From NCBI GenBank assembly GCA_036676395.1, contig JAKFCY010000002.1, forward strand, positions 2,624,001 to 2,688,000: 64,000 nucleotides of DNA. Reading direction: 5' to 3'. Position 1 is the first letter of the stretch; the number at the start of each line of letters is the position of its first letter. Of the stretch, positions 33,314-46,422 are shown piece by piece. Origin of the DNA: Bdellovibrio sp. (GTDB lineage Bacteria; Bdellovibrionota; Bdellovibrionia; Bdellovibrionales; Bdellovibrionaceae). The position numbers and the translations under genes were made by a program. The notes beneath the pieces are model-generated. The model ran no database searches and had not been told where the DNA came from. It saw nothing but the letters and a program-made list of their open reading frames with translations.

Positions 33314-34035
33314 TCGAAATTGTTAATTTTAAAAAAGCATTCGGTACTAAAATCATTCACGAAAATGTCAGTTTTTATGTTAAAAAAGGTGAATGTCTTG
33401 GTTTAGTTGGCGGTTCAGGAGCTGGCAAGTCAGTGATTCTTCGTAGTCTGATCGGCTTAGAAAAACCTGATTCAGGGCAAATCCTAATCAACGGTGTAGA
33501 TATCGTTCCATTAAATGAACAAGAACTTATTCCCGTCAGAAAACAAGTGGCTTACGCCTTTCAGGGCGGAGCACTTTTTGATTCGATGACTGTCTATGAA
33601 AATTTAGCCTATCCGCTGCGAGCCCATACCGAACTGGTCGAAACTGAAATTGCTGAAAAAATTCATCATCAATTGGCTGAATTTGGCTTAGAAAAATCGA
33701 TTCATCTTTATCCAGGTGAACTTTCTGGCGGTATGCAAAAACGTATTGGATTAGCACGTGCCGTGATTATGCAGCCTGAAATTATTCTCTATGATGAACC
33801 AACAGCAGGCTTAGATCCCTATAACACTCGAAAGATCCAGGAGTTAATTCTGCGTTTAAAAGCTACTGGTGTAACGGCCATTTTAGTAACTCATGATATT
33901 CCAACAGCAATGGCAGTTTGTGATAAATTCGCATTTCTAAAAGACAAAGTGATCGCCGAACAAGGCACCATTGATCAATTATTAAGTCGCGACAACAGCC
34001 TGATTCAACAATTTATAGAAGGTAACATCTTATGA
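33304..34035 (+). CDS. mlaF: MlaF-family ABC ATPase
   Basis: GGSGAGKS, FQGGALFDSMTV, LSGGMQKR and YDEPTAGLDP motifs. Confidence 0.93.
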   Translation: MALIEIVNFKKAFGTKIIHENVSFYVKKGECLGLVGGSGAGKSVILRSLIGLEKPDSGQILINGVDIVPLNEQELIPVRKQVAYAFQGGALFDSMTVYENLAYPLRAHTELVETEIAEKIHHQLAEFGLEKSIHLYPGELSGGMQKRIGLARAVIMQPEIILYDEPTAGLDPYNTRKIQELILRLKATGVTAILVTHDIPTAMAVCDKFAFLKDKVIAEQGTIDQLLSRDNSLIQQFIEGNIL

Positions 34036-34796
34036 CAAAACTTAAAGTCGGTCTATTTTTAGCGTTGGGACTAATCGTTTTAGTAATTTCTGTATTCATG
34101 TTGGGTGCTAATAAATCTGTATTTCAAAACTCTTACAGTATTAGTACGTATTTTGACTCTGTTCAGGGATTAAATAACGGCGCGGTCGTTTCATTGGCAG
34201 GTGTAAAAATCGGTAACGTTGAATCGATTGATTACGATGATGAAAAAAACCTGGTGCGCGTGATTTTTCTGATGGATGCGGCCTACGCGAAAAAAACAAA
34301 GTCAGATTCAATCGTTGAAATCAGAACTCAAGGTGCATTAGGTGATAAGTTTTTATATATCAAACCGGGTATTTCAGGAACTCCGCTGGAAAACCGCGGC
34401 GAACTAAAATCAGAATACGGCAATGATCTATTAGCCGTGTTAAATAAGCGCGGCAACGAAAGTGAAAAACTATTTGATACAATTCACAACTTAAACCTGA
34501 TCGTTAAAGGCCTAGCCGATCAAAACAAATTACCAAGCTTGATCAACAAGTTAGATCAAGCTGCCGGAAACTTAAACGACTCATCAGTTAAAATCAAACA
34601 AGCCTTAGCCGGAAACCGCTTAGAACACTCAATGACTAAAATGGATAACATCTTAGAAAAGATCGACAACGGCCAAGGCACATTGGGTGCTTTGATCAAC
34701 GACAGATCTCTACACGATCGCCTAAAATCAATCCTAGGCGCCGGCCAAAAACAACAAGCCGTCAAATCCATCATCAAATCCTCAGTCGACGAATAG
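34032..34796 (+). CDS. mlaD: MlaD/MCE domain protein
   Basis: N-terminal TM, VQGLNNGAVVSLAGVKIGNV, QGALGDKF and GQGTLGALI motifs. Confidence 0.9.
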   Translation: MTKLKVGLFLALGLIVLVISVFMLGANKSVFQNSYSISTYFDSVQGLNNGAVVSLAGVKIGNVESIDYDDEKNLVRVIFLMDAAYAKKTKSDSIVEIRTQGALGDKFLYIKPGISGTPLENRGELKSEYGNDLLAVLNKRGNESEKLFDTIHNLNLIVKGLADQNKLPSLINKLDQAAGNLNDSSVKIKQALAGNRLEHSMTKMDNILEKIDNGQGTLGALINDRSLHDRLKSILGAGQKQQAVKSIIKSSVDE

Positions 34797-34800
34797 CGTT

Positions 34801-34829
34801 TACCCCTCTATCTCAGGGGTATCGGTCAC
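34801..34829 (-). repeat. GTGACCGATACCCC copy 1 (34816-34829, minus) plus overlapping hairpin TACCCCT-ctatctc-AGGGGTA
   Basis: Read directly; contains the TGA stop of the transposase ORF. Confidence 0.85.
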
Positions 34830-35419
34830 GAACTCCACAGCTTCTGCCAGTGTACGACCGAAAGCCCACGTAAACGCATTTTCTGATAGGGAATAACTCC
34901 CGTGGCTTCTTTTTCATTAAGCTGAATATAATTTCTTAATATCACATACCCACGCCACCCATGCACAACCCGGGTAAACGGCCGAAACAACCACAACTTC
35001 ATCACCCGCTTTGCCGTTACTCCACGCTTCTCTGCTGGGGTATCGGTCACTTCGCGCAGTAGATTCTCTTTTTGCAGTTCTTGGGCGATTTGCCCTGCCA
35101 CAACCCGCATAAAATAATGCGACATCGCCCTTCGTGGAACCCTAATGTTGAGATGAATATGATCGAAGTTAATCGAACACTGATCAATTTTGATAAAGAA
35201 CCGTTTTGCATAACGATCAATAATACGCCGAACTATTTTATACGACCGCGGAGATCGAAAATTCAGTTTCAGTGCTTTTTTATCGGCCTTAAAGACGACG
35301 TGATGAGGTTTTCGGGTTGAAAGCGGACGAAACTTTCTGCCTTTACGTAGCTGGCGAAGGCTGCCACCGTGACTGTGTTTTAAGTTATATTTCTTAAGTG
35401 CGTGATTGATGTGACCCAT
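34826..35419 (-). CDS. HUH/Y1 tyrosine transposase (RAYT/IS200-TnpA superfamily), stand-alone
   Basis: Basic N-terminus, HHVVFK strand, HUH motif DHIHL, LW..RPFTRVV, candidate catalytic Tyr in YIQLN; no adjacent tnpB. Confidence 0.82.
   Translation of the reverse strand: MGHINHALKKYNLKHSHGGSLRQLRKGRKFRPLSTRKPHHVVFKADKKALKLNFRSPRSYKIVRRIIDRYAKRFFIKIDQCSINFDHIHLNIRVPRRAMSHYFMRVVAGQIAQELQKENLLREVTDTPAEKRGVTAKRVMKLWLFRPFTRVVHGWRGYVILRNYIQLNEKEATGVIPYQKMRLRGLSVVHWQKLWSS
35037..35050 (-). repeat. GTGACCGATACCCC copy 2, in frame inside the transposase gene (VTDTP)
   Basis: Exact 14-mer; shares the 17-mer GAAGTGACCGATACCCC with copy 5. Confidence 0.85.
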
Positions 35420-35424
35420 ACCCC
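35411..35424 (+). repeat. Motif copy 3, GTGACCCATACCCC (one mismatch), containing the transposase ATG
   Basis: 13/14 match; the mismatch is what makes ATG on the minus strand. Confidence 0.75.
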
Positions 35425-35521
35425 AGGGCGGTGTTCAAGAAGTGGCGCTGGGTGAAAACTGATTCTATGGCAGGTAGAGCGATCGAAGATACGGGTATCG
35501 AATGTGCTGGTCCGAAAAAAC

Positions 35522-35556
35522 AAAAAGCCTACGTTTCGTAAACGTAGGCTTTTTTT
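35522..35556. terminator. Bidirectional intrinsic terminator (15-bp perfect stem)
   Basis: AAAAAGCCTACGTTT-cgt-AAACGTAGGCTTTTT. Confidence 0.88.
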
Positions 35557-35557
35557 G

Positions 35558-35572
35558 GTGACCGATACCCCC
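35558..35572 (+). repeat. Motif copy 4, GTGACCGATACCCCC
   Basis: Exact 15-mer identical to 37760-37774. Confidence 0.85.
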
Positions 35573-35609
35573 AACACAACAACGACGTGGGGCTATGAGT
35601 TCCTTAAAA

Positions 35610-37646
35610 CTATTTTAAGTAAATATCTGTGTACGTCGTGTAAGTCGGACGTACCTTGGCAGAAATGTTTCTTGGGGCTAAACCCGGAAACTTCAACGCC
35701 ATTCTAACCGGAATACCATCGTTTAACTGCGCGCGAGCCTGTTGGTTATTCGAATCTTTTGCCCATGCACGGCCTAAGTAGAACAATCTGATCACACGTG
35801 AATCAGCGTATTCTTTAACGATCGCGTATGAGTTTAACACTTCTCTTGAACGGTTAATTTGATTCGCATAAAGATCACCTGGATTATCCAAACGATTTTC
35901 TAAACGCGCCTTATCGTTACCTGTGTGCTTAGCAGTATTGTAACCGAAAGTAATGTTTTTCAAGATTTTTTCAGGAGATGACAAATCACCCGTGTACGAT
36001 TTTGGTAATCTGATGTTCATCACTAATGCATAAGAACCTAATTCATAACGAAGTTTTTCGTTTTCGTTATAACGATCAGAATCTAATTCTACGTTAAAAT
36101 ACTTATTCACTAAACGTTGGTTACAAGCGATGCGGCCTGCTTCACAGTTCGTTAACGTCTCGATCACATGTTTAAAGTTTGGATGTTTACACGTTTCAGG
36201 AGCAGCGCACTCTTTATTCATGATCACAACATCTACGCCAATTGATTTATCAAAGCTGTTGATCCCTTTTGCTAAAGCATCACCCACCGGAGCTAAAACT
36301 CCTGATAAACCATCGATTGCTGGCAACACTGTCGCATGCATGTTTTCAACAAAGATTTCGCGCGAAGGAATGTTTAAAGTACGTTGTAAATCAGCTGTGT
36401 TTACATAGCTAGTTTCTGCAACTGGTTTAGATTCGTTACCTGGATTTTCTACATAGTATAAGAAATCTGCTGTAGCACCCGGGCTAAATACCGGACCATC
36501 TGTTTCGCGGCGTTTATGGCCAGAAAAAATAGTTACGAATTGTTCGTTAATTTTTCTTAAATTTTCAGATTGAAAACCCGTACAAGTAAGACCCGCATCA
36601 GTTTTACCTAAGCACGGAAAAACACCCACGATGCTTGTCCAACGCGTGCGGTATTTTGTGCGGTATTGATCTAACATCAAATGAGAAATACGGTTTACAC
36701 GCATTTCATTAATCACATCTGAAGTTAAACGCATATGATTCATTTCGCTAGGGTTAATGTTACCCACTGATTTCATCACTTTAGTTAAACCTGTCATCGC
36801 CAAACCAGGAACATTGTTAACATTTTTTACTATGATGTTATTTGCAATCGCATTCACTGAAGCACAAGAAGCGATTAGACCATTTTTAACTGCGCGGTCA
36901 TTCATTTCTTTTTGTGTGTAAACTTTATTTGGATCACCGAATAATTTTTCTTTAGCGCCAGTATATAAGTTAGATAAAAAACCTTTTCCTTCAGTGATGC
37001 TTTCAATCGACGGATCATCACAAAGCGCTTTGGCTTTAGGTAATAATTTATGAATTTCGGCTAAGTTACCTTTTTCAAGAAAAGACCAACCAAGTTCAGC
37101 ATCTATAGAACCCCAGTAAACCGGGCCAAGACCGACTATATTTTCAACGCGGGCTACATAGCTTTGAACTTTTTCTGCATCTTCAGCGTTGTACGCCATC
37201 GACGGATGGAATTTAAAGTTGAACATTGAATCGTAGTACCAAGTCATCACCATTTGCCCACCCATTGAGTAAGCTAAAATAGAGATTTTGTCTTCTGGCC
37301 CTAGTTCAGGAATAAGCGGCTTAGCGCTGCCATTACCTAAAATAAAATCTTTATTGAATTTATCAGCGATTAAATGCGGTTCCCAGTTAATTCCGGTTTT
37401 AGCATCATTAACTGCAGCACCTACCGGATATGTCCAATTGAATAATTCATATTCGTAGGCCGGATCGATCTCTTTCAGAGTTTTTCCGACAAACGTGTGA
37501 AACTCACCGTAAGATTCTGCATTACCACGCACGCCGTGCATTGTGATGATGTAATGTTTTTTAGTCGTAGAACTTGGTGAACGTAATCCCAAGTATGAAC
37601 ACGACGAGATGAATGCAACCAGCATTAGCGATAGCAATAACTTCAT
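35610..37646 (-). CDS. Lipoprotein with an N-terminal alpha/beta-hydrolase-like (lipase/esterase) domain
   Basis: ISSC lipobox, MHGVRG oxyanion-type motif, AYSMGG nucleophile elbow; GGAG RBS. Confidence 0.75.
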   Translation of the reverse strand: MKLLLSLMLVAFISSCSYLGLRSPSSTTKKHYIITMHGVRGNAESYGEFHTFVGKTLKEIDPAYEYELFNWTYPVGAAVNDAKTGINWEPHLIADKFNKDFILGNGSAKPLIPELGPEDKISILAYSMGGQMVMTWYYDSMFNFKFHPSMAYNAEDAEKVQSYVARVENIVGLGPVYWGSIDAELGWSFLEKGNLAEIHKLLPKAKALCDDPSIESITEGKGFLSNLYTGAKEKLFGDPNKVYTQKEMNDRAVKNGLIASCASVNAIANNIIVKNVNNVPGLAMTGLTKVMKSVGNINPSEMNHMRLTSDVINEMRVNRISHLMLDQYRTKYRTRWTSIVGVFPCLGKTDAGLTCTGFQSENLRKINEQFVTIFSGHKRRETDGPVFSPGATADFLYYVENPGNESKPVAETSYVNTADLQRTLNIPSREIFVENMHATVLPAIDGLSGVLAPVGDALAKGINSFDKSIGVDVVIMNKECAAPETCKHPNFKHVIETLTNCEAGRIACNQRLVNKYFNVELDSDRYNENEKLRYELGSYALVMNIRLPKSYTGDLSSPEKILKNITFGYNTAKHTGNDKARLENRLDNPGDLYANQINRSREVLNSYAIVKEYADSRVIRLFYLGRAWAKDSNNQQARAQLNDGIPVRMALKFPGLAPRNISAKVRPTYTTYTDIYLK

Positions 37647-37759
37647 AGTTTCTCCATAGAGTAGAGTGTTTTATTAATAAAAACTTTGCGCGAAAACTAA
37701 TTCACGCGTCCTTATTCAGTATATGTGTTTATGTTTGGATAAAAAGTCCAGAAACGGAA

Positions 37760-37774
37760 GTGACCGATACCCCC
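37760..37774 (+). repeat. Motif copy 5, GTGACCGATACCCCC
   Basis: Exact 15-mer direct repeat of 35558-35572. Confidence 0.85.
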
Positions 37775-37821
37775 GAAAGCGGACTCGACTATGGCCTAGC
37801 TATAGACACAGCTGACACAGG

Positions 37822-38268
37822 CTATTTTTTGATAAATTTTTGTAGATTGGTTTTAAATTCTTCGTTGTCGGCGGCTGGAACGTTTTTGCGGTCCATGGTT
37901 ACGCGAATTTCTTTTACCGCGCCGGCTGAAAATTTTTGATTTACGGTATTTTTTATAGTCTCAGACATAAAATTAATTTGCGTTAACCATGTCGAGTTTT
38001 TAACCCACAAAGTTAATACACCCTGATGAAATGAAACCGGTTCGCAGTGCTGTGCCGTTGTTGGACCGACGATGTCTTTCCAGTTCATCCAAAGCTTCCA
38101 GCGTAAAAACTGATCGGCCATGTGATCAATGCTGAAATCTTGTTTTTTCCATGACGAACCAGTGGCATCTTTTTTAAAACCTAATGAAGTTTTACCTTGC
38201 CCTGAAAGCAAGCTCTGTAGCACTTCTGCGCTGGTTTTGAATTTTGGTTTACGGTCTCGTTCGCTCAC
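37822..38268 (-). CDS. DUF721/DciA-like protein
   Basis: WKDIVGP..AQHCEPV....GVLTLWVKNSTWLTQINF pattern; GTG start inferred. Confidence 0.75.
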   Translation of the reverse strand: MSERDRKPKFKTSAEVLQSLLSGQGKTSLGFKKDATGSSWKKQDFSIDHMADQFLRWKLWMNWKDIVGPTTAQHCEPVSFHQGVLTLWVKNSTWLTQINFMSETIKNTVNQKFSAGAVKEIRVTMDRKNVPAADNEEFKTNLQKFIKK

Positions 38269-38327
38269 ACAAAAACTGTATCCTATCCCCTTGCTTTTTG
38301 CGATGGGAAAGCTTAGTTTTCGCAACT

Positions 38328-43102: not shown

Positions 43103-43115
43103 GTGACCGATACCC
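43103..43115 (+). repeat. Motif copy 6, GTGACCGATACCC (13 nt), in the tdk leader
   Basis: Shares the 15-mer TCGTGACCGATACCC with copy 1. Confidence 0.55.
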
Positions 43116-43195
43116 AAATTCTCACAGGTAATTTTCGAAGTTTCCAGAAGGAAATTTTTGCACGATGTGTCTGAAAATCGGTGAAAAGGCCTATA

Positions 43196-44624: not shown

Positions 44625-46422
44625 GTTGATCCACATCATAACCCAAATGATCTGCTAAGTGGTAAGCCATCAATTGTAATGGCACGACCGCGATTAATGG
44701 ATTTGTTGTCCATAACGCTTTCGGAAGCGAAAGATAAAACTCACTCATTGATTTTAAACCTTCATTTTCGCCAGTGCCGATAGAAATGATTTTTCCACCG
44801 CGGGCTTTAGCTTCTTGTAAATTACTGATCGTTTTATCAATCAGATCATCACTTGGAGCAACCACCACAATCGCCATGTCTTTATCAATCAATGCTAGCG
44901 GCCCATGCTTCATTTCGCCAGCGGCATAACCTTCAGCGTGCATATAAGCTAATTCTTTAAGTTTCAAAGCGCCTTCTAAAGCAATCGGAAAACTTACGCC
45001 GCGGCCTAAGAATAAAAAGCCTTTAAATTCACGAAGCTTAATGGCAGCTTCGTTAAAGTATTTATCATAAGCCAGTACTGTTTCCATTTGGCTAGGTACG
45101 GCTAATAAACTTTCAACAATCTGTTTTTCAGCTGCAGCCGTGATTCCGCCGCGCGCTTTAGCGATTTGCACCGCTAAAATATTTAACAATGACAATGTGC
45201 TTGAAAAAGCTTTAGTGCTGGCCACACCGACTTCAACGCCCGTGTTCATGTACATATGACCTAAAGCTTCGCGGTCAATTGAAGATTGCGCCACATTCGT
45301 GATGGATAAAGTTTGTGCCCCAAATTCTTTGGCTAATCGCACTGCAGCCAAAGTATCTGCCGTTTCACCACTTTGTGAAATAGTGATCACTAACGTGTTC
45401 GGTGGCAAAATCGGTTTACGGTAGCGAAATTCAGAGGCGATATCTGTTTCAACCGGAATTTTTGCGATTTGTTCGATAAGATATTTACCAACCATGGCTG
45501 CGTAATAACTTGTACCGCAGGCAATAAAAAATACGCGATCGATTTTTTTATACATTTCGGCAGTTTCATAACCGATATTTTTTAAATTGATTGAATGGGT
45601 GTCGGTATCGATAAACGGAGCAATCGCTTGCGCTACGGCACGCGGCTGTTCGTAAATTTCTTTTAACATGAAATGTTTAAAGCCTGCTTTTTCAACTTGG
45701 TCTTCTGACCAGTCGACAGTGACGATCTCTTTTTTGATCTCTTCACCTTGAGCGCTTAAAAATTTAATGTCAGAGCCATTGATGTGCACGATTTCACGGT
45801 CATTTAAATAAACGAATTTTTTTGTGTACTTAATAGCAGCTTGCACATCTGAAACTATGAAATGTTCTTTTTCGCCGATACCCGCAATTAATGGTGGGCC
45901 ATCTTTAAACGCGATTAATTCATTTGGAGATTTCTCCCACATCACTAAAATTGAAAACGCGCCGATGATTTTACCCAACGTATTTTTAACTGACTGAAGT
46001 AAATTCTGAGTTTTTTGAATATCTTCCCAGATTAAGTGAGCTACTAATTCAGAATCAGTGTCAGATTTAATCTCTGTGCCTTTTTTAATAAGCTCGGCTT
46101 TGATTTCTAAATAGTTTTCGATAATACCGTTGTGCACTAGGCTGATTTCACCAGCTTGGTGAGGATGAGCATTACGTTCATTTGGAGCGCCGTGCGTGGC
46201 CCAACGCGTGTGACCGATACCTAAGTGACCGTTAAAAGACTCAGAGATGATTTTTTCTTCTAAATTTTTTAACTTGCCTTGGGCACGTACGCGTTTGGTT
46301 TTGCCGTCATGAATAACTGCAATACCGGCGCTATCGTAACCGCGATATTCAAGTTTTTTTAAGCCATCAATAATAATTTTTTTAGGTTCTTGCGGCCCCA
46401 AGTAACCAACGATTCCACACAT
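44590..46422 (-). CDS. glmS: Glutamine-fructose-6-phosphate transaminase
   Basis: MCGIVG, GHTRWATHG and PRNLAKSVTVE motifs. Confidence 0.97.
   Translation of the reverse strand: MCGIVGYLGPQEPKKIIIDGLKKLEYRGYDSAGIAVIHDGKTKRVRAQGKLKNLEEKIISESFNGHLGIGHTRWATHGAPNERNAHPHQAGEISLVHNGIIENYLEIKAELIKKGTEIKSDTDSELVAHLIWEDIQKTQNLLQSVKNTLGKIIGAFSILVMWEKSPNELIAFKDGPPLIAGIGEKEHFIVSDVQAAIKYTKKFVYLNDREIVHINGSDIKFLSAQGEEIKKEIVTVDWSEDQVEKAGFKHFMLKEIYEQPRAVAQAIAPFIDTDTHSINLKNIGYETAEMYKKIDRVFFIACGTSYYAAMVGKYLIEQIAKIPVETDIASEFRYRKPILPPNTLVITISQSGETADTLAAVRLAKEFGAQTLSITNVAQSSIDREALGHMYMNTGVEVGVASTKAFSSTLSLLNILAVQIAKARGGITAAAEKQIVESLLAVPSQMETVLAYDKYFNEAAIKLREFKGFLFLGRGVSFPIALEGALKLKELAYMHAEGYAAGEMKHGPLALIDKDMAIVVVAPSDDLIDKTISNLQEAKARGGKIISIGTGENEGLKSMSEFYLSLPKALWTTNPLIAVVPLQLMAYHLADHLGYDVDQPRNLAKSVTVE

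Follow-up and report, generated by a model that had tools for sequence, protein, structure and literature searches.

At the convergent junction of mlaD and dciA in a Bdellovibrio genome, third codon positions are strongly skewed beside copies of a short motif, GTGACCGATACCCC. The original prediction held that this synonymous skew runs 3' from the motif along the motif strand, regardless of gene direction, and that it reflects repeated nicking and strand-biased repair or resynthesis. Here we ask what the motif is, how far the skew follows it, and what might cause it. Positions are those of the window, the whole 64,000-nt stretch of DNA analysed.

The mlaD–dciA locus

The gene mlaD (34032..34796, + strand; MCE/MlaD family; PF02470 MlaD, E 7e-19) closes an mlaE-mlaF-mlaD row. 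It scores 86 bits against TIGR04430, under the cut-off of that model, and has 48 orthologs across 51 genomes of the genus. Facing it is dciA (37822..38325, - strand; start codon uncertain), a DUF721 gene of the helicase-operator family DciA (PF05258 DciA, E 2.6e-20). Between the two lies a rayT-like gene of 197 aa (34826..35419, - strand) encoding a REP-associated (RAYT) transposase of the Y1 HUH type. It matches PF01797 Y1_Tnp at 24.0 bits (cut-off 23), its homologs carry the name 'REP element-mobilizing transposase RayT', and D86-H87-x-H89 and Y164-x-x-L-N are invariant in 12 aligned sequences. The remaining gene encodes a predicted lipoprotein of 678 aa (35610..37646, - strand), for which Pfam and NCBIfam profile searches returned no match.

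The locus holds four exact copies of the motif and one with 1 mismatch, where chance predicts none; the entire source genome has only 9 exact copies, and those elsewhere occur as solo copies and inverted doublets. Copy 1 (34816..34829, - strand, exact) contains the TGA stop of rayT and points 3' towards mlaD, with a 7-bp hairpin directly 3' of its tag (DNA fold -7.8 kcal/mol, z -2.8). Copy 2 (35037..35050, - strand, exact) lies in frame within rayT and encodes V-T-D-T-P. VTDT(P) is near-invariant across the rayT family and adjoins an insert of variable length, and the rayT paralog at C2:2070987 also has this internal copy. Copy 3 (35411..35424, + strand), a REP-like sequence with the 1 mismatch, overlaps the rayT start codon; in many relatives an exact motif adjoins the rayT ATG. 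Copy 4 (35558..35571, + strand, exact), inverted relative to copy 1 and with a weak hairpin, points into the 3' end of the lipoprotein gene, while copy 5 (37760..37773, + strand, exact) points into that of dciA. A putative terminator-like hairpin with A and T runs, as read from the sequence, is located between rayT and the lipoprotein gene (35522..35556, unstranded), and an equivalent hairpin lies 3' of mlaD in G067, a genome whose locus has no rayT.

We identify the motif as the REP of a domesticated RAYT transposase of the Y1/HUH class (PF01797). The locus is a REPtron-like unit inserted between convergent mlaD and dciA: rayT is bracketed by inverted REPs, a third REP sits in frame inside it, and a fourth lies past the neighbouring lipoprotein gene. 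The lipoprotein gene had been proposed as cargo of the element, which it is not, because G067 carries it adjoining mlaD without any RAYT or motif.

The unit resembles the REPtron/REP-RAYT systems of E. coli (rayT/yafM TnpA-REP with REP/BIME) and Pseudomonas (REPIN-RAYT). As in those systems, a Y1 HUH gene is bracketed by inverted cognate repeats, each repeat has a hairpin behind a conserved 5' tag, the genome carries further solo copies and inverted doublets, and the enzyme family cuts ssDNA, leaving a 3'-OH (PMC3333891, in the part available to us). It differs in its very low copy number (9 exact here, and 1-15 in carrier genomes of the genus), in the seven Y1 genes of the source genome and in the REP copy in frame inside a gene. 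With IS200/IS605 (TnpA Y1, peel-and-paste on the lagging-strand template) it shares the enzyme superfamily, strand-specific chemistry and subterminal hairpins with a 5' guide. Here, however, tnpB is absent, copies are not near-identical (even in G081, where relatives are multi-copy, identity among them is only 85-93%), and rayT is syntenic across a genus, which suggests that it is inherited vertically.

Third-position skew in the source genome

All codon counts of the original prediction were exactly reproduced. The terminal 25 sense codons of mlaD all end in A or C, as do 80 of the last 98 (34500..34793, + strand; third positions C41 A39 T11 G7); the first 156 codons give 82/156. In frame 3' of internal copy 2, 22 of 23 rayT codons (34943..35011, - strand) end in G or T, and 28 of the final 35 sense codons of dciA (37825..37929, - strand) end in A or C. 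The lipoprotein gene is unskewed overall (T245 A199 C122 G112). REP copies 1 and 2 point into mlaD and copy 5 into dciA; the sense-strand tails of these two genes are therefore A/C-ending and the tail of rayT is G/T-ending.

To gauge rarity we used 3005 ORF-based gene calls from the whole source genome (third-position A/C 0.485). The tail of mlaD ranks first among all gene ends in this set. No other gene has 25 of 25 in its last codons or at least 80 in its last 98 (mean 48.0, sd 6.7), and its run of 25 A/C-ending codons is the longest in the genome (runner-up 21). At least 28 A/C endings in the last 35 codons, the dciA threshold, are found in 11 of the 3005 genes, and a 23-codon window with at least 22 G/T endings, the rayT threshold, in 14. 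What is anomalous in the last 98 codons of mlaD is the base chosen at two-fold pyrimidine codons, where C outnumbers T by 24 to 4 (genome 34% C); the four-fold sites read C17 A13 T7 G0.

Chance, or ordinary variation in codon usage between genes with the repeat unrelated, is a very improbable explanation. Between-gene spread in third-position A/C does exceed the binomial (sd 0.052), and sliding 98-codon windows placed anywhere in genes recover one further gene at 80 and one at 77, neither of which adjoins the REP motif. Against chance stand the rank of mlaD (1/3005), null gene-end controls and replication in two independent locus sets (both below), and an association with RAYT genes. The source genome has 7 Y1_Tnp ORFs, and only 9 genes end within 250 nt of one. 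Nine genes have at least 45 A/C endings in their last 60 codons, 4 of which adjoin a Y1_Tnp ORF; for the top 12 gene ends (at least 44/60) against RAYT adjacency, Fisher p = 2e-8.

The effect is nevertheless uneven, and the skew rule is not universal. Of the 9 genes that end beside a RAYT ORF, five have unremarkable tails (28-38/60). Nor is there skew 3' of the copies at C2:105346, 1600646 and 2057590, or 3' of copy 4 at the lipoprotein gene (third-position keto 10/20, 12/33 and 20/34); beyond C2:1600646, the 3' gene even has an A/C-rich motif strand.

With increasing distance from copy 1 on the mlaD side, the - strand carries keto third positions at 25/26, 24/34, 27/33 and 33/50, then 24/50. 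A caveat is that - strand skew flanks copy 1 on both sides: the 3' part of rayT beside it gives 22/33 and 26/33, and the skewed tract is continuous from the rayT interior into mlaD. Counting third positions in the last 60 codons gives G27 for rayT and G20-23 for three other RAYT ORFs of the source genome. Both the unbroken tract and these G-rich ends would suit transcription-associated asymmetry, in which transcripts running outward from rayT or REP expose the non-template REP strand to A->G change and keto bias. We consider this quite unlikely, since there is no known outward promoter and the neighbours' own transcription, opposite in direction, is expected to counteract it.

Within rayT, between the copies that point left and those that point right, the GC skew of the + strand changes sign, from -0.31 to +0.19. 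A sign switch at the element, with the strand leading 5'->3' away from the centre G-/keto-rich on both sides, recalls the GC/keto skew of chromosomal origins. Unlike that skew, the present one extends over hundreds of bases rather than megabases, has a repeat/transposase unit at its centre, and overlies the chromosome's own (the + strand is lagging at the locus). Its third-position amplitude is also far larger, at 0.82 A/C locally versus 0.51 in regional + strand genes.

REP flanks and orthologs across genomes

From 30 other genomes we sampled 122 fragments that surround a motif copy, taken from among the matches listed, and compared each flanking gene, called from ORFs, with its own distal part; related genomes in this sample are not independent. 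The flanking genes are real, because 63 of 92 ORFs have Pfam matches. In the genus set (76 fragments, 20 other genomes of the genus), sense-strand third-position A/C within 300 nt 3' of the motif, relative to the rest of the gene, changed by +0.063 in opposite-strand genes (30/35 positive) and by -0.033 in same-strand genes (5/15 positive); the 5' side gave +0.033 (13/18) and +0.011 (5/10). A replication set (46 fragments; 10 further genomes, of which 8 belong to other genera and families) gave +0.085 (25/33 positive).

Resolved by base on the 3' side, motif-strand G rose by 0.062 in 62 opposite-strand genes (47 positive) and by 0.053 in 25 same-strand genes (22 positive), while A fell by 0.080 in the opposite-strand genes (8 of 62 positive); C changed by -0.005 and T by +0.022. 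No effect on G was seen on the 5' side (+0.003 and -0.009). With homologous genes clustered, G within 300 nt 3' rose by 0.069 on the opposite strand (40/51 clusters positive, p 4e-6) and by 0.049 on the same strand (18/21, p 0.0012), again with no effect on the 5' side (10/24 and 6/14). By genome, 21/25 were positive on the 3' side and 9/20 on the 5' side. The 3' signal decays smoothly with distance (+0.08, +0.07, +0.11, +0.07, +0.06, +0.04) to about zero by roughly 450 nt (+0.006 and +0.001 beyond). In a source-genome control comparing the last or first 100 codons with the rest of each gene, differences were at most 0.01 for every base, with 51% of genes positive. A/C runs at gene ends, which the original prediction had named as a possible objection if common genome-wide, are uncommon.

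These data show that the strand bearing REP in the GTGACCGAT-hairpin orientation is enriched in G at synonymous sites, chiefly at the cost of A, which therefore produces a keto excess. The enrichment spans about 300-450 nt 3' of REP in either gene direction, and the 5' side is null, so that the predicted dependence on motif orientation rather than gene direction holds in both strand classes. The same-strand shift is the smaller one; the near parts of same-strand genes are N-terminal regions with a differing amino-acid make-up (first-position G -0.070). In non-coding flanks, composition analysis is confounded by conserved element sequence.

The skew is not a gene-end effect, as it appears at REPs without a RAYT within 1.5 kb (26/31 opposite-strand genes) and in the upstream part of genes spanning the motif (19/23). 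Outward transcription gains from the strength of the effect just past RAYT 3' ends, where it is greatest (dG +0.148, n=7, 6/7; and +0.088, 5/5), and loses from the RAYT-less REPs and from REPs at RAYT 5' ends, whose effect is directed away from the gene (+0.074, 6/10).

We also compared the same genes with and without REP. For dciA, counts with an adjacent REP are 46, 41, 38 and 35 of 60, versus 27.0±4.8 without (n=27); over the last 35 codons, G000 has 28/35 and REP-less G067 15/35. For mlaD, the 8 orthologs with a REP within 100 nt have 63-80/98, versus mostly 44-68/98 without, and orthologs with an adjacent RAYT and no outer REP have 51-61/98. The expectation that motif-less orthologs lack the skew was upheld only in part: G044 (78/98, with a different palindromic insert downstream) and G067 (71/98) are skewed. 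The PLD-gene orthologs L185/L186 reach 64-67/100 with no insert whatever, and L198-L202 reach 65-75 beside other GC-rich palindromes. The tail of mlaD did not arrive together with the element: between L016 and L001, identity is 0.56 for the N-part and 0.54 for the C-part. Within the clade that bears REP, mlaD tails agree at only 55-60% of third positions, yet every one is skewed, which indicates that the bias is being maintained.

These comparisons bear on a preference of REPs to insert or survive beside DNA already skewed, the skew then being older than the repeat. REP-less mlaD tails average about 0.57 A/C against 0.49 genome-wide, skew is present in G044, in L185/L186 and in some further orthologs without REP, and the mlaD-dciA and PLD-arginase junctions have been colonised repeatedly by different RAYT families. 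We nonetheless judge such a preference improbable. The skew of REP-bearing relatives is missing from REP-less orthologs of dciA, the low PLD group (42-56/100) and the Na/Pi transporter (dC -0.10 to +0.08), the diverged mlaD tails are all skewed, and nothing known about ssDNA transposition would account for a one-sided target preference over 450 nt.

Possible causes: mutation or RNA-level selection

A REP/RAYT-linked, strand-asymmetric mutation process fits these observations best, and Rho-type selection is its main rival. Under the latter, the coding tail before the REP hairpin would be held C-rich, G/U-poor and unstructured by selection on the RNA, so that tail and REP could together form a Rho-dependent terminator or 3'-end processing signal now that the insertion keeps the convergent genes apart; we regard this as possible but unlikely. 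Several features speak for it. Effects are largest where the stop codon abuts REP (dG +0.082 in non-spanning opposite-strand genes, 33/44), the mlaD tail has a C/G of 1.49 and zero G at 37 four-fold sites, C-rich tails also precede other palindromes or other RAYT families, and the ancestral mlaD/dciA junction (L015) has hardly any spacer and no evident terminator. As in E. coli, where REPs are linked to Rho-dependent termination and mRNA stabilisation, REP sits directly behind a stop codon where convergent genes meet, and the tail upstream is C-rich. The available part of a preprint describes E. coli REPs as partial Rho-dependent terminators, about half of them within 300 bp of a Rho-dependent 3' end, and deals with REP itself rather than recoding of the upstream gene (10.64898/2026.03.23.713779). 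Here, in contrast, the effect depends on REP orientation and extends to same-strand genes, whose 5' ends face REP and which gain sense-strand G in 18/21 clusters. Selection on the RNA is further disfavoured by the effect in the upstream part of motif-spanning genes, by the null result in genes entering REP from the 5' side (5/10 positive; 6/14 clusters), and by the main mRNA change across loci, which is loss of U and not of G. Moreover, a rut site in a translated region is covered by ribosomes.

We therefore hold, with moderate confidence, that the REPtron-like unit and the 3' skew of the REP strand are linked by a strand-asymmetric mutation process tied to REP processing. TnpA-REP binds REP with its conserved 5' tag and cuts through a 5'-phosphotyrosine, leaving a free 3'-OH (PMC3333891, in the part available). 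In the version that we consider most probable, RAYT would cut the REP strand and stay 5'-linked to the downstream DNA, and the 3'-OH left behind could prime repeatedly, such that the REP strand is resynthesised or displaced over a few hundred bases. Uncorrected misincorporation of the T:dGTP type in the new strand would then yield A->G; alternatively, deamination may accumulate on the displaced single strand. The outcome would be like a miniature replication origin with an outward, leading-strand-like skew. As judged from base composition, nicking with strand-biased resynthesis would be consistent with both the polarity and the prevailing A->G change on the motif strand. Resynthesis and deamination should both also produce some C->T on that strand, and against this cause, such change is barely seen (C -0.005, T +0.022).

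In the REP/RAYT literature searched, as far as it was available to us, we found no description of a polar compositional footprint in REP-flanking genes. Silent sites downstream of REP are shifted in a strand-specific manner, and this shift looks like a local mutational footprint of the repeat.

Third-position skew at the mlaD-rayT-dciA locus

The original prediction described a synonymous skew running 3' from copies of a short motif, the REP 14-mer GTGACCGATACCCC, and each of its codon counts in mlaD, the transposase gene (rayT) and the DUF721 gene was reproduced exactly. In mlaD (34032-34796, + strand), A or C is the third base of each of the last 25 sense codons and of 80 among the last 98 (C41, A39, T11, G7); for the first 156 codons the figure is 82. 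Of the 23 in-frame rayT codons in 35011-34943, 22 are G/T-ending, and in the DUF721 gene, which encodes DciA (PF05258), 28 of the last 35 codons are A/C-ending. Third positions are ordinary in the lipoprotein gene that lies between rayT and dciA. Within the last 98 codons of mlaD, two-fold pyrimidine codons are split 24 C to 4 T (34% C in the genome) and four-fold sites comprise C17, A13, T7 and G0. The last 297 nt of the gene have a C/G ratio of 1.49 and a GC skew of -0.21 to -0.31.

This composition was set against 3005 ORF-based gene calls, which cover 91% of the 3.40 Mb genome (39.8% G+C) and have a third-position A/C fraction of 0.485. Only mlaD reaches 25 of 25 in the last 25 codons, or 80 of 98 in the last 98 (mean 48.0, sd 6.7), and it holds the longest A/C-ending run of the genome, at 25 codons, the runner-up being 21. 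At least 28 of 35 at the gene end is found in 11 of the 3005 genes, and 14 of 3005 contain some 23-codon window with 22 G/T endings. Sliding 98-codon windows placed anywhere in genes of this genome returned one other gene at 80 and another at 77, both away from the motif. The state of the mlaD tail is thus rare, not unique.

Several general causes were considered. Common A/C runs at gene ends would have counted against the original prediction, but such runs are not common (mlaD is one gene in 3005, and gene-end controls give at most 0.01). A general codon effect at gene ends or gene starts was rejected, with differences from the rest of the gene of at most 0.01 for each base in this genome. 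Replication strand was rejected because, although the + strand is lagging here, the baseline of + genes is only 0.49-0.52, and because REPs of both orientations at a single locus each show outward skew. Translational optimisation is not supported, since the genes highest in third-position A/C in this genome are not obviously highly expressed.

The rayT gene and its repeats

The rayT ORF (34826-35419, - strand) encodes 197 aa and matches the Y1_Tnp profile (PF01797) at 24.0 bits (E 4.5e-5), above the curated cut-off of 23 but marginal; against the NCBIfam IS200 model it scores 22.3 bits, under the cut-off of 55. It has hundreds of homologs, many of them with PF01797 and named REP element-mobilizing transposase RayT, and the closest named ones are Bdellovibrio and Pseudobdellovibrio records. 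A sequence search of the PDB gave no significant match to the product. Among 12 aligned RAYT sequences, D86-H87-x-H89, Y158 and Y164-x-x-L167-N168 are invariant; one of the conserved tyrosines is presumably catalytic.

The locus holds four exact copies of GTGACCGATACCCC and one with a single mismatch, where chance would give none. Copy 1 (34816, - strand) contains the rayT stop codon, and copy 4 (35558, + strand) lies upstream of the rayT start, past a terminator-like hairpin; these two exact, mutually inverted copies bracket rayT, and relatives share the layout. Copy 2 (35037-35050, - strand) lies in frame within rayT and encodes VTDTP, a peptide that hardly varies among 12 family members and adjoins a linker varying by up to ~90 residues. 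A rayT paralog on another part of the genome (C2:2070794-2071456) has the same internal copy. Copy 3, with one mismatch, overlaps the rayT start codon. Folding identified a clear hairpin only at copy 1 among the five (7 bp, z -2.8); copy 2 folds weakly, and copies 3, 4 and 5 do not exceed shuffled sequences. By eye, CCCC...GGGG arms are seen at many motif copies in relatives.

Judged from this arrangement, rayT and its REP copies probably form a REP/RAYT (REPtron-like) unit. IS200/IS605 elements usually carry tnpB and occur as near-identical mobile copies. In contrast, no second ORF was found inside the REP-bounded unit at this locus, and the two rayT genes of this family in the genome are diverged paralogs. 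A profile search of the genome found seven Y1_Tnp ORFs, with at least three different flanking repeats; two of the seven belong to the subfamily of rayT, which differs from the single-copy state of a domesticated RAYT.

REP sequences are dispersed, extragenic and high in copy number, typically >100 per genome. The GTGACCGATACCCC motif differs from such classical REPs in that its copy number is far lower and several copies lie within genes. The genome has 9 exact copies, or 22 allowing up to two mismatches; the window itself contains further motif-like copies at 43103-43116 (one mismatch, just upstream of a gene start) and 46210-46223 (two mismatches). The exact 14-mer is present in 32 of the 52 genomes examined in the genus, mostly at 1-15 copies each, and across the order in 6 of 69 sampled genera. 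In a neighbouring genus, one genome (G081; loci L131-L141) has 51 exact copies and no fewer than six RAYT paralogs that are 85-93% identical to one another, each with the same triple-REP layout, and the GTGACCGATACCCC-type family can therefore be multi-copy. Exact 14-mers are also present inside giant repeat-protein genes, one in this genome (C2:2057590) and four in a second genome (G016; L070-L072 and L074), where ~0.02 per genome would be expected by chance. These copies share the same local protein context, with a weak YadA-head match in one gene; G excess is also seen 3' of them, and C2:2057590 lacks keto (G+T) skew.

In the genus, the ancestral gene order runs from mlaD to a directly convergent dciA and then to trmFO. 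The site downstream of mlaD is occupied in two clades of the genus, which fits either old residence or repeated insertion. The 678-aa predicted lipoprotein (35610-37646, - strand) has no Pfam or NCBIfam match and is 80-97% identical within the clade. The proposal that its gene is cargo of the element was not borne out: in a related genome, G067, the gene lies beside mlaD with neither RAYT nor motif, and it is therefore a resident gene.

Skew beside other motif copies and RAYT genes

On the 3' side of other motif copies in the same genome, three showed no skew and one a moderate keto excess; the gene 3' of C2:1600646 leans the opposite way. To the listed matches from 30 other genomes we applied a paired comparison, using 122 fragments (±1.5 kb around motif copies). 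The mlaD loci, the near-relatives G018, G041 and G052, and most copies within ~700 nt of a contig end were left out. ORFs of at least 90 codons, RAYT genes excluded, were scored for third positions near a motif (up to 300 nt, one mismatch allowed) and far from it (>450 nt) in the same gene, with at least 30 near and 60 far sites.

Among the matches listed in the genus set, opposite-strand genes on the 3' side had a near-minus-far change in sense A/C of +0.063 (30 of 35 positive, p 8e-5) and same-strand genes one of -0.033 (5 of 15 positive); on the 5' side the values were +0.033 (13 of 18) and +0.011 (5 of 10), respectively. A replication set, mostly from other genera, gave, again among the matches listed, +0.085 (25 of 33, p 2e-4) and -0.040 (5 of 12) on the 3' side, and -0.004 (7 of 14) for 5' opposite-strand genes. 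Read on the motif strand, the change 3' of REPs is chiefly a rise in G and a fall in A. The 62 opposite-strand genes among the matches listed gained G by +0.062 (47 positive) and lost A by -0.080 (8 positive), and the 25 same-strand genes gained G by +0.053 (22 positive). The 5' side of the listed matches showed no effect on motif-strand G (+0.003 and -0.009).

Clustering homologous genes among the matches listed left 40 of 51 positive on the opposite strand (p 4e-6) and 18 of 21 on the same strand (p 0.0012) on the 3' side, while the 5' side was not significant (10 of 24 and 6 of 14). Counted per genome over the same matches, the 3' side was positive in 21 of 25 and the 5' side in 9 of 20. 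With increasing distance the excess in the listed matches was +0.08, +0.07, +0.11, +0.07, +0.06 and +0.04, falling to ~0 beyond 450 nt. Also among the matches listed, the effect was positive in 26 of 31 opposite-strand genes at REPs with no RAYT in the fragment and in 19 of 23 genes spanning the motif, and it was largest just beyond RAYT 3' ends (+0.148, n=7). The proposal that the skew tracks motif orientation is thus upheld by the 3' clusters and the null 5' side, but not by every copy, as several in the studied genome are unaffected.

Spurious ORFs on a stop-poor strand were considered as a source; 63 of 92 flanking ORFs, the strongest cases included, have Pfam hits and are therefore real genes. 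In non-coding flanks on the 3' side, G exceeds C in 76 of 105 segments, a count confounded by conserved sequence upstream of rayT that is common to the loci. The G081 insertions were unsuitable for examining recent insertion; their copies, at 85-93% identity, are not recent.

A rut region is richer in C than G, unstructured, ~80 nt long and located upstream of the termination zone. The main rival explanation is that C-rich gene tails are selected to work with the REP as a Rho-dependent terminator, and a 2026 preprint describes E. coli REPs with such activity (10.64898/2026.03.23.713779). Selection of this kind accounts for the strongest cases of skew, but it does not account for the same-strand genes, the motif-spanning genes or the silent 5' side.

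Orthologs with and without a REP were compared next to three genes. For mlaD we scored A/C endings in the last 98 codons of 49 genes, the studied genome's own and 48 orthologs of the genus. Where a REP lies no more than 100 nt from the stop (eight genes), the scores were 80, 79, 76, 73, 73, 72, 65 and 63; orthologs with a downstream RAYT and no outer REP scored 51-61, and most others 44-68. Two motif-less orthologs run against a simple rule, G044 (L054) at 78 and G067 at 71. G044 has no copy of the 14-mer in its genome and a divergent mlaD C-terminus, and between its mlaD and dciA lies another kind of palindromic insert (~120 nt, long inverted arms); G067 has neither RAYT nor motif and is near REP-bearing sisters (third-position identity ~0.8). 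In G012 (L016), mlaD scores 73, with 23 of 25 at the end, and is only 55% identical in protein to the mlaD of the window (L001). Co-transfer of the tail with the element was rejected here, because the tail is no closer to the window's mlaD than the head is (identity 0.54 in the C-part, 0.56 in the N-part). Sub-lineages of the REP-bearing clade share only 55-60% of the third positions in the mlaD tail and yet all are skewed, so the bias is maintained and not an inherited relic.

The cleanest contrast is that of dciA. In the four orthologs that have a REP no further than 200 nt from the stop, the scores are 46, 41, 38 and 35 of 60, and the 27 without one score 27.0±4.8, with a maximum of 39 at a locus whose REP is ~209 nt away. 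Over the last 35 codons, the window's gene has 28 A/C endings versus 15 in REP-less G067. A small contrast, from one clade, was seen for the Na/Pi transporter, with the highest near-minus-far C changes (+0.12 and +0.14) in two REP-adjacent genes and -0.10 to +0.08 in those lacking a REP.

In eight genomes of another genus of the family, a GTGACCGATACCCC-type REP/RAYT follows a PLD-type gene, whose last 100 codons include 62-78 A/C endings, with C at 47-59; in the rest of the gene C is only 0.22-0.29. Motif-less orthologs score 42-56 of 100 in 13 of 20 cases. In G204 (L187), the same PLD-arginase intergenic site holds a RAYT from a separate family (by eye, HFHLL and YVYRNPV motifs), and the tail scores 80 of 100, strongly C-ending. 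Tails beside other GC-rich palindromic repeats reach 65-75, and those of two sister genomes without any insert a weaker 64-67. Because similar tails lie beside another RAYT family and other palindromes, the skew is linked to RAYT/REP-type elements generally and not to GTGACCGATACCCC alone; nor is it strictly dependent on an element's current presence.

Outside the window, the regions C2:2435132-2437631, C3:33362-35301 and C2:2152436-2153536 of the studied genome gave related observations: other RAYT genes have different flanking repeats, of the TTAGGTAGGCCGTCCC and GGTGCCAGGCC types, their neighbours have the same tail skew, and a solo GGTGCCAGGCC-type repeat follows one top-skew gene. Nine genes end within 250 nt of a Y1_Tnp ORF. 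Four of these have 45-49 A/C endings among the final 60 codons, a level (at least 45 of 60) that only nine genes in the whole genome reach, and RAYT adjacency among the top 12 genes is significant (Fisher p = 2e-8); the five other adjacent gene ends are ordinary, at 28-38. Around C2:2435987-2436637 the neighbours on both sides are skewed as mirror images, at 47 of 60 each. Among top-skew genes that are not adjacent to a RAYT, one has a solo REP from another RAYT family downstream, and several have other palindromes there.

Origin and meaning of the skew

Together, the data show that G is enriched on the REP strand in a polar, one-sided way that depends on distance, is independent of gene orientation and is maintained over long divergence. 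These properties argue for a DNA-strand process over a translational or mRNA one. Transcription-linked asymmetry and a site preference of REPs are possible minor contributors.

According to a study of the TnpA-REP enzyme family, the enzyme becomes joined to the DNA downstream through a 5'-phosphotyrosine, and a free 3'-OH is left on the REP side (PMC3333891). A RAYT cut at the REP strand would likewise leave the 3'-OH on the REP side and the protein on the downstream DNA. DNA synthesis starting at this 3'-OH would renew or displace the REP strand in exactly the direction that the skew takes, and dGTP placed opposite T in the new strand would yield A-to-G changes on the REP strand. Incorporation of dGTP opposite T is the commonest polymerase error. 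Such priming and misincorporation are the source that we infer for the skew. We consider it conceivable, though rather unlikely, that RAYT is an in vivo REP nickase and that repeated 3'-OH-primed, rolling-circle-like displacement synthesis makes the REP a one-sided mini-origin, with leading-strand-like G/keto skew over 300-450 nt. The priming model does not explain why C-to-T changes are nearly absent, why the same-strand effect is weaker, or why many REPs are unaffected.

REP/RAYT systems are well known, and the literature searched, part of it in partial text, yielded no description of a compositional or mutational skew, or halo, beside REP/RAYT or IS200/IS605 elements. The present analysis contributes the observation that the skew depends on REP orientation whichever way the gene runs, along with its base signature and decay length, its replication in other genera, and the comparisons of mlaD, dciA and the PLD gene with and without the element.

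The role of RAYTs and REPs in living cells is debated, with mobility, termination, mRNA stability and chromosome structure all proposed. A polar, distance-dependent footprint would provide a genome-wide readout of REP processing, showing which way it runs, how far it reaches and which bases it favours. When the last 50-100 codons of a gene are locally recoded, the result can look like horizontal transfer or codon adaptation, and dS estimates and codon-usage statistics can be biased by it. Should selection for termination prove to be the cause, a newly arrived repeat would force recoding of the gene upstream of it. If the nickase and mini-origin reading is true, the skew would be the first readable in-genome trace of RAYT activity, and these elements would act as a built-in, directional local mutator of neighbouring genes, including where REPs lie inside giant surface-protein genes.
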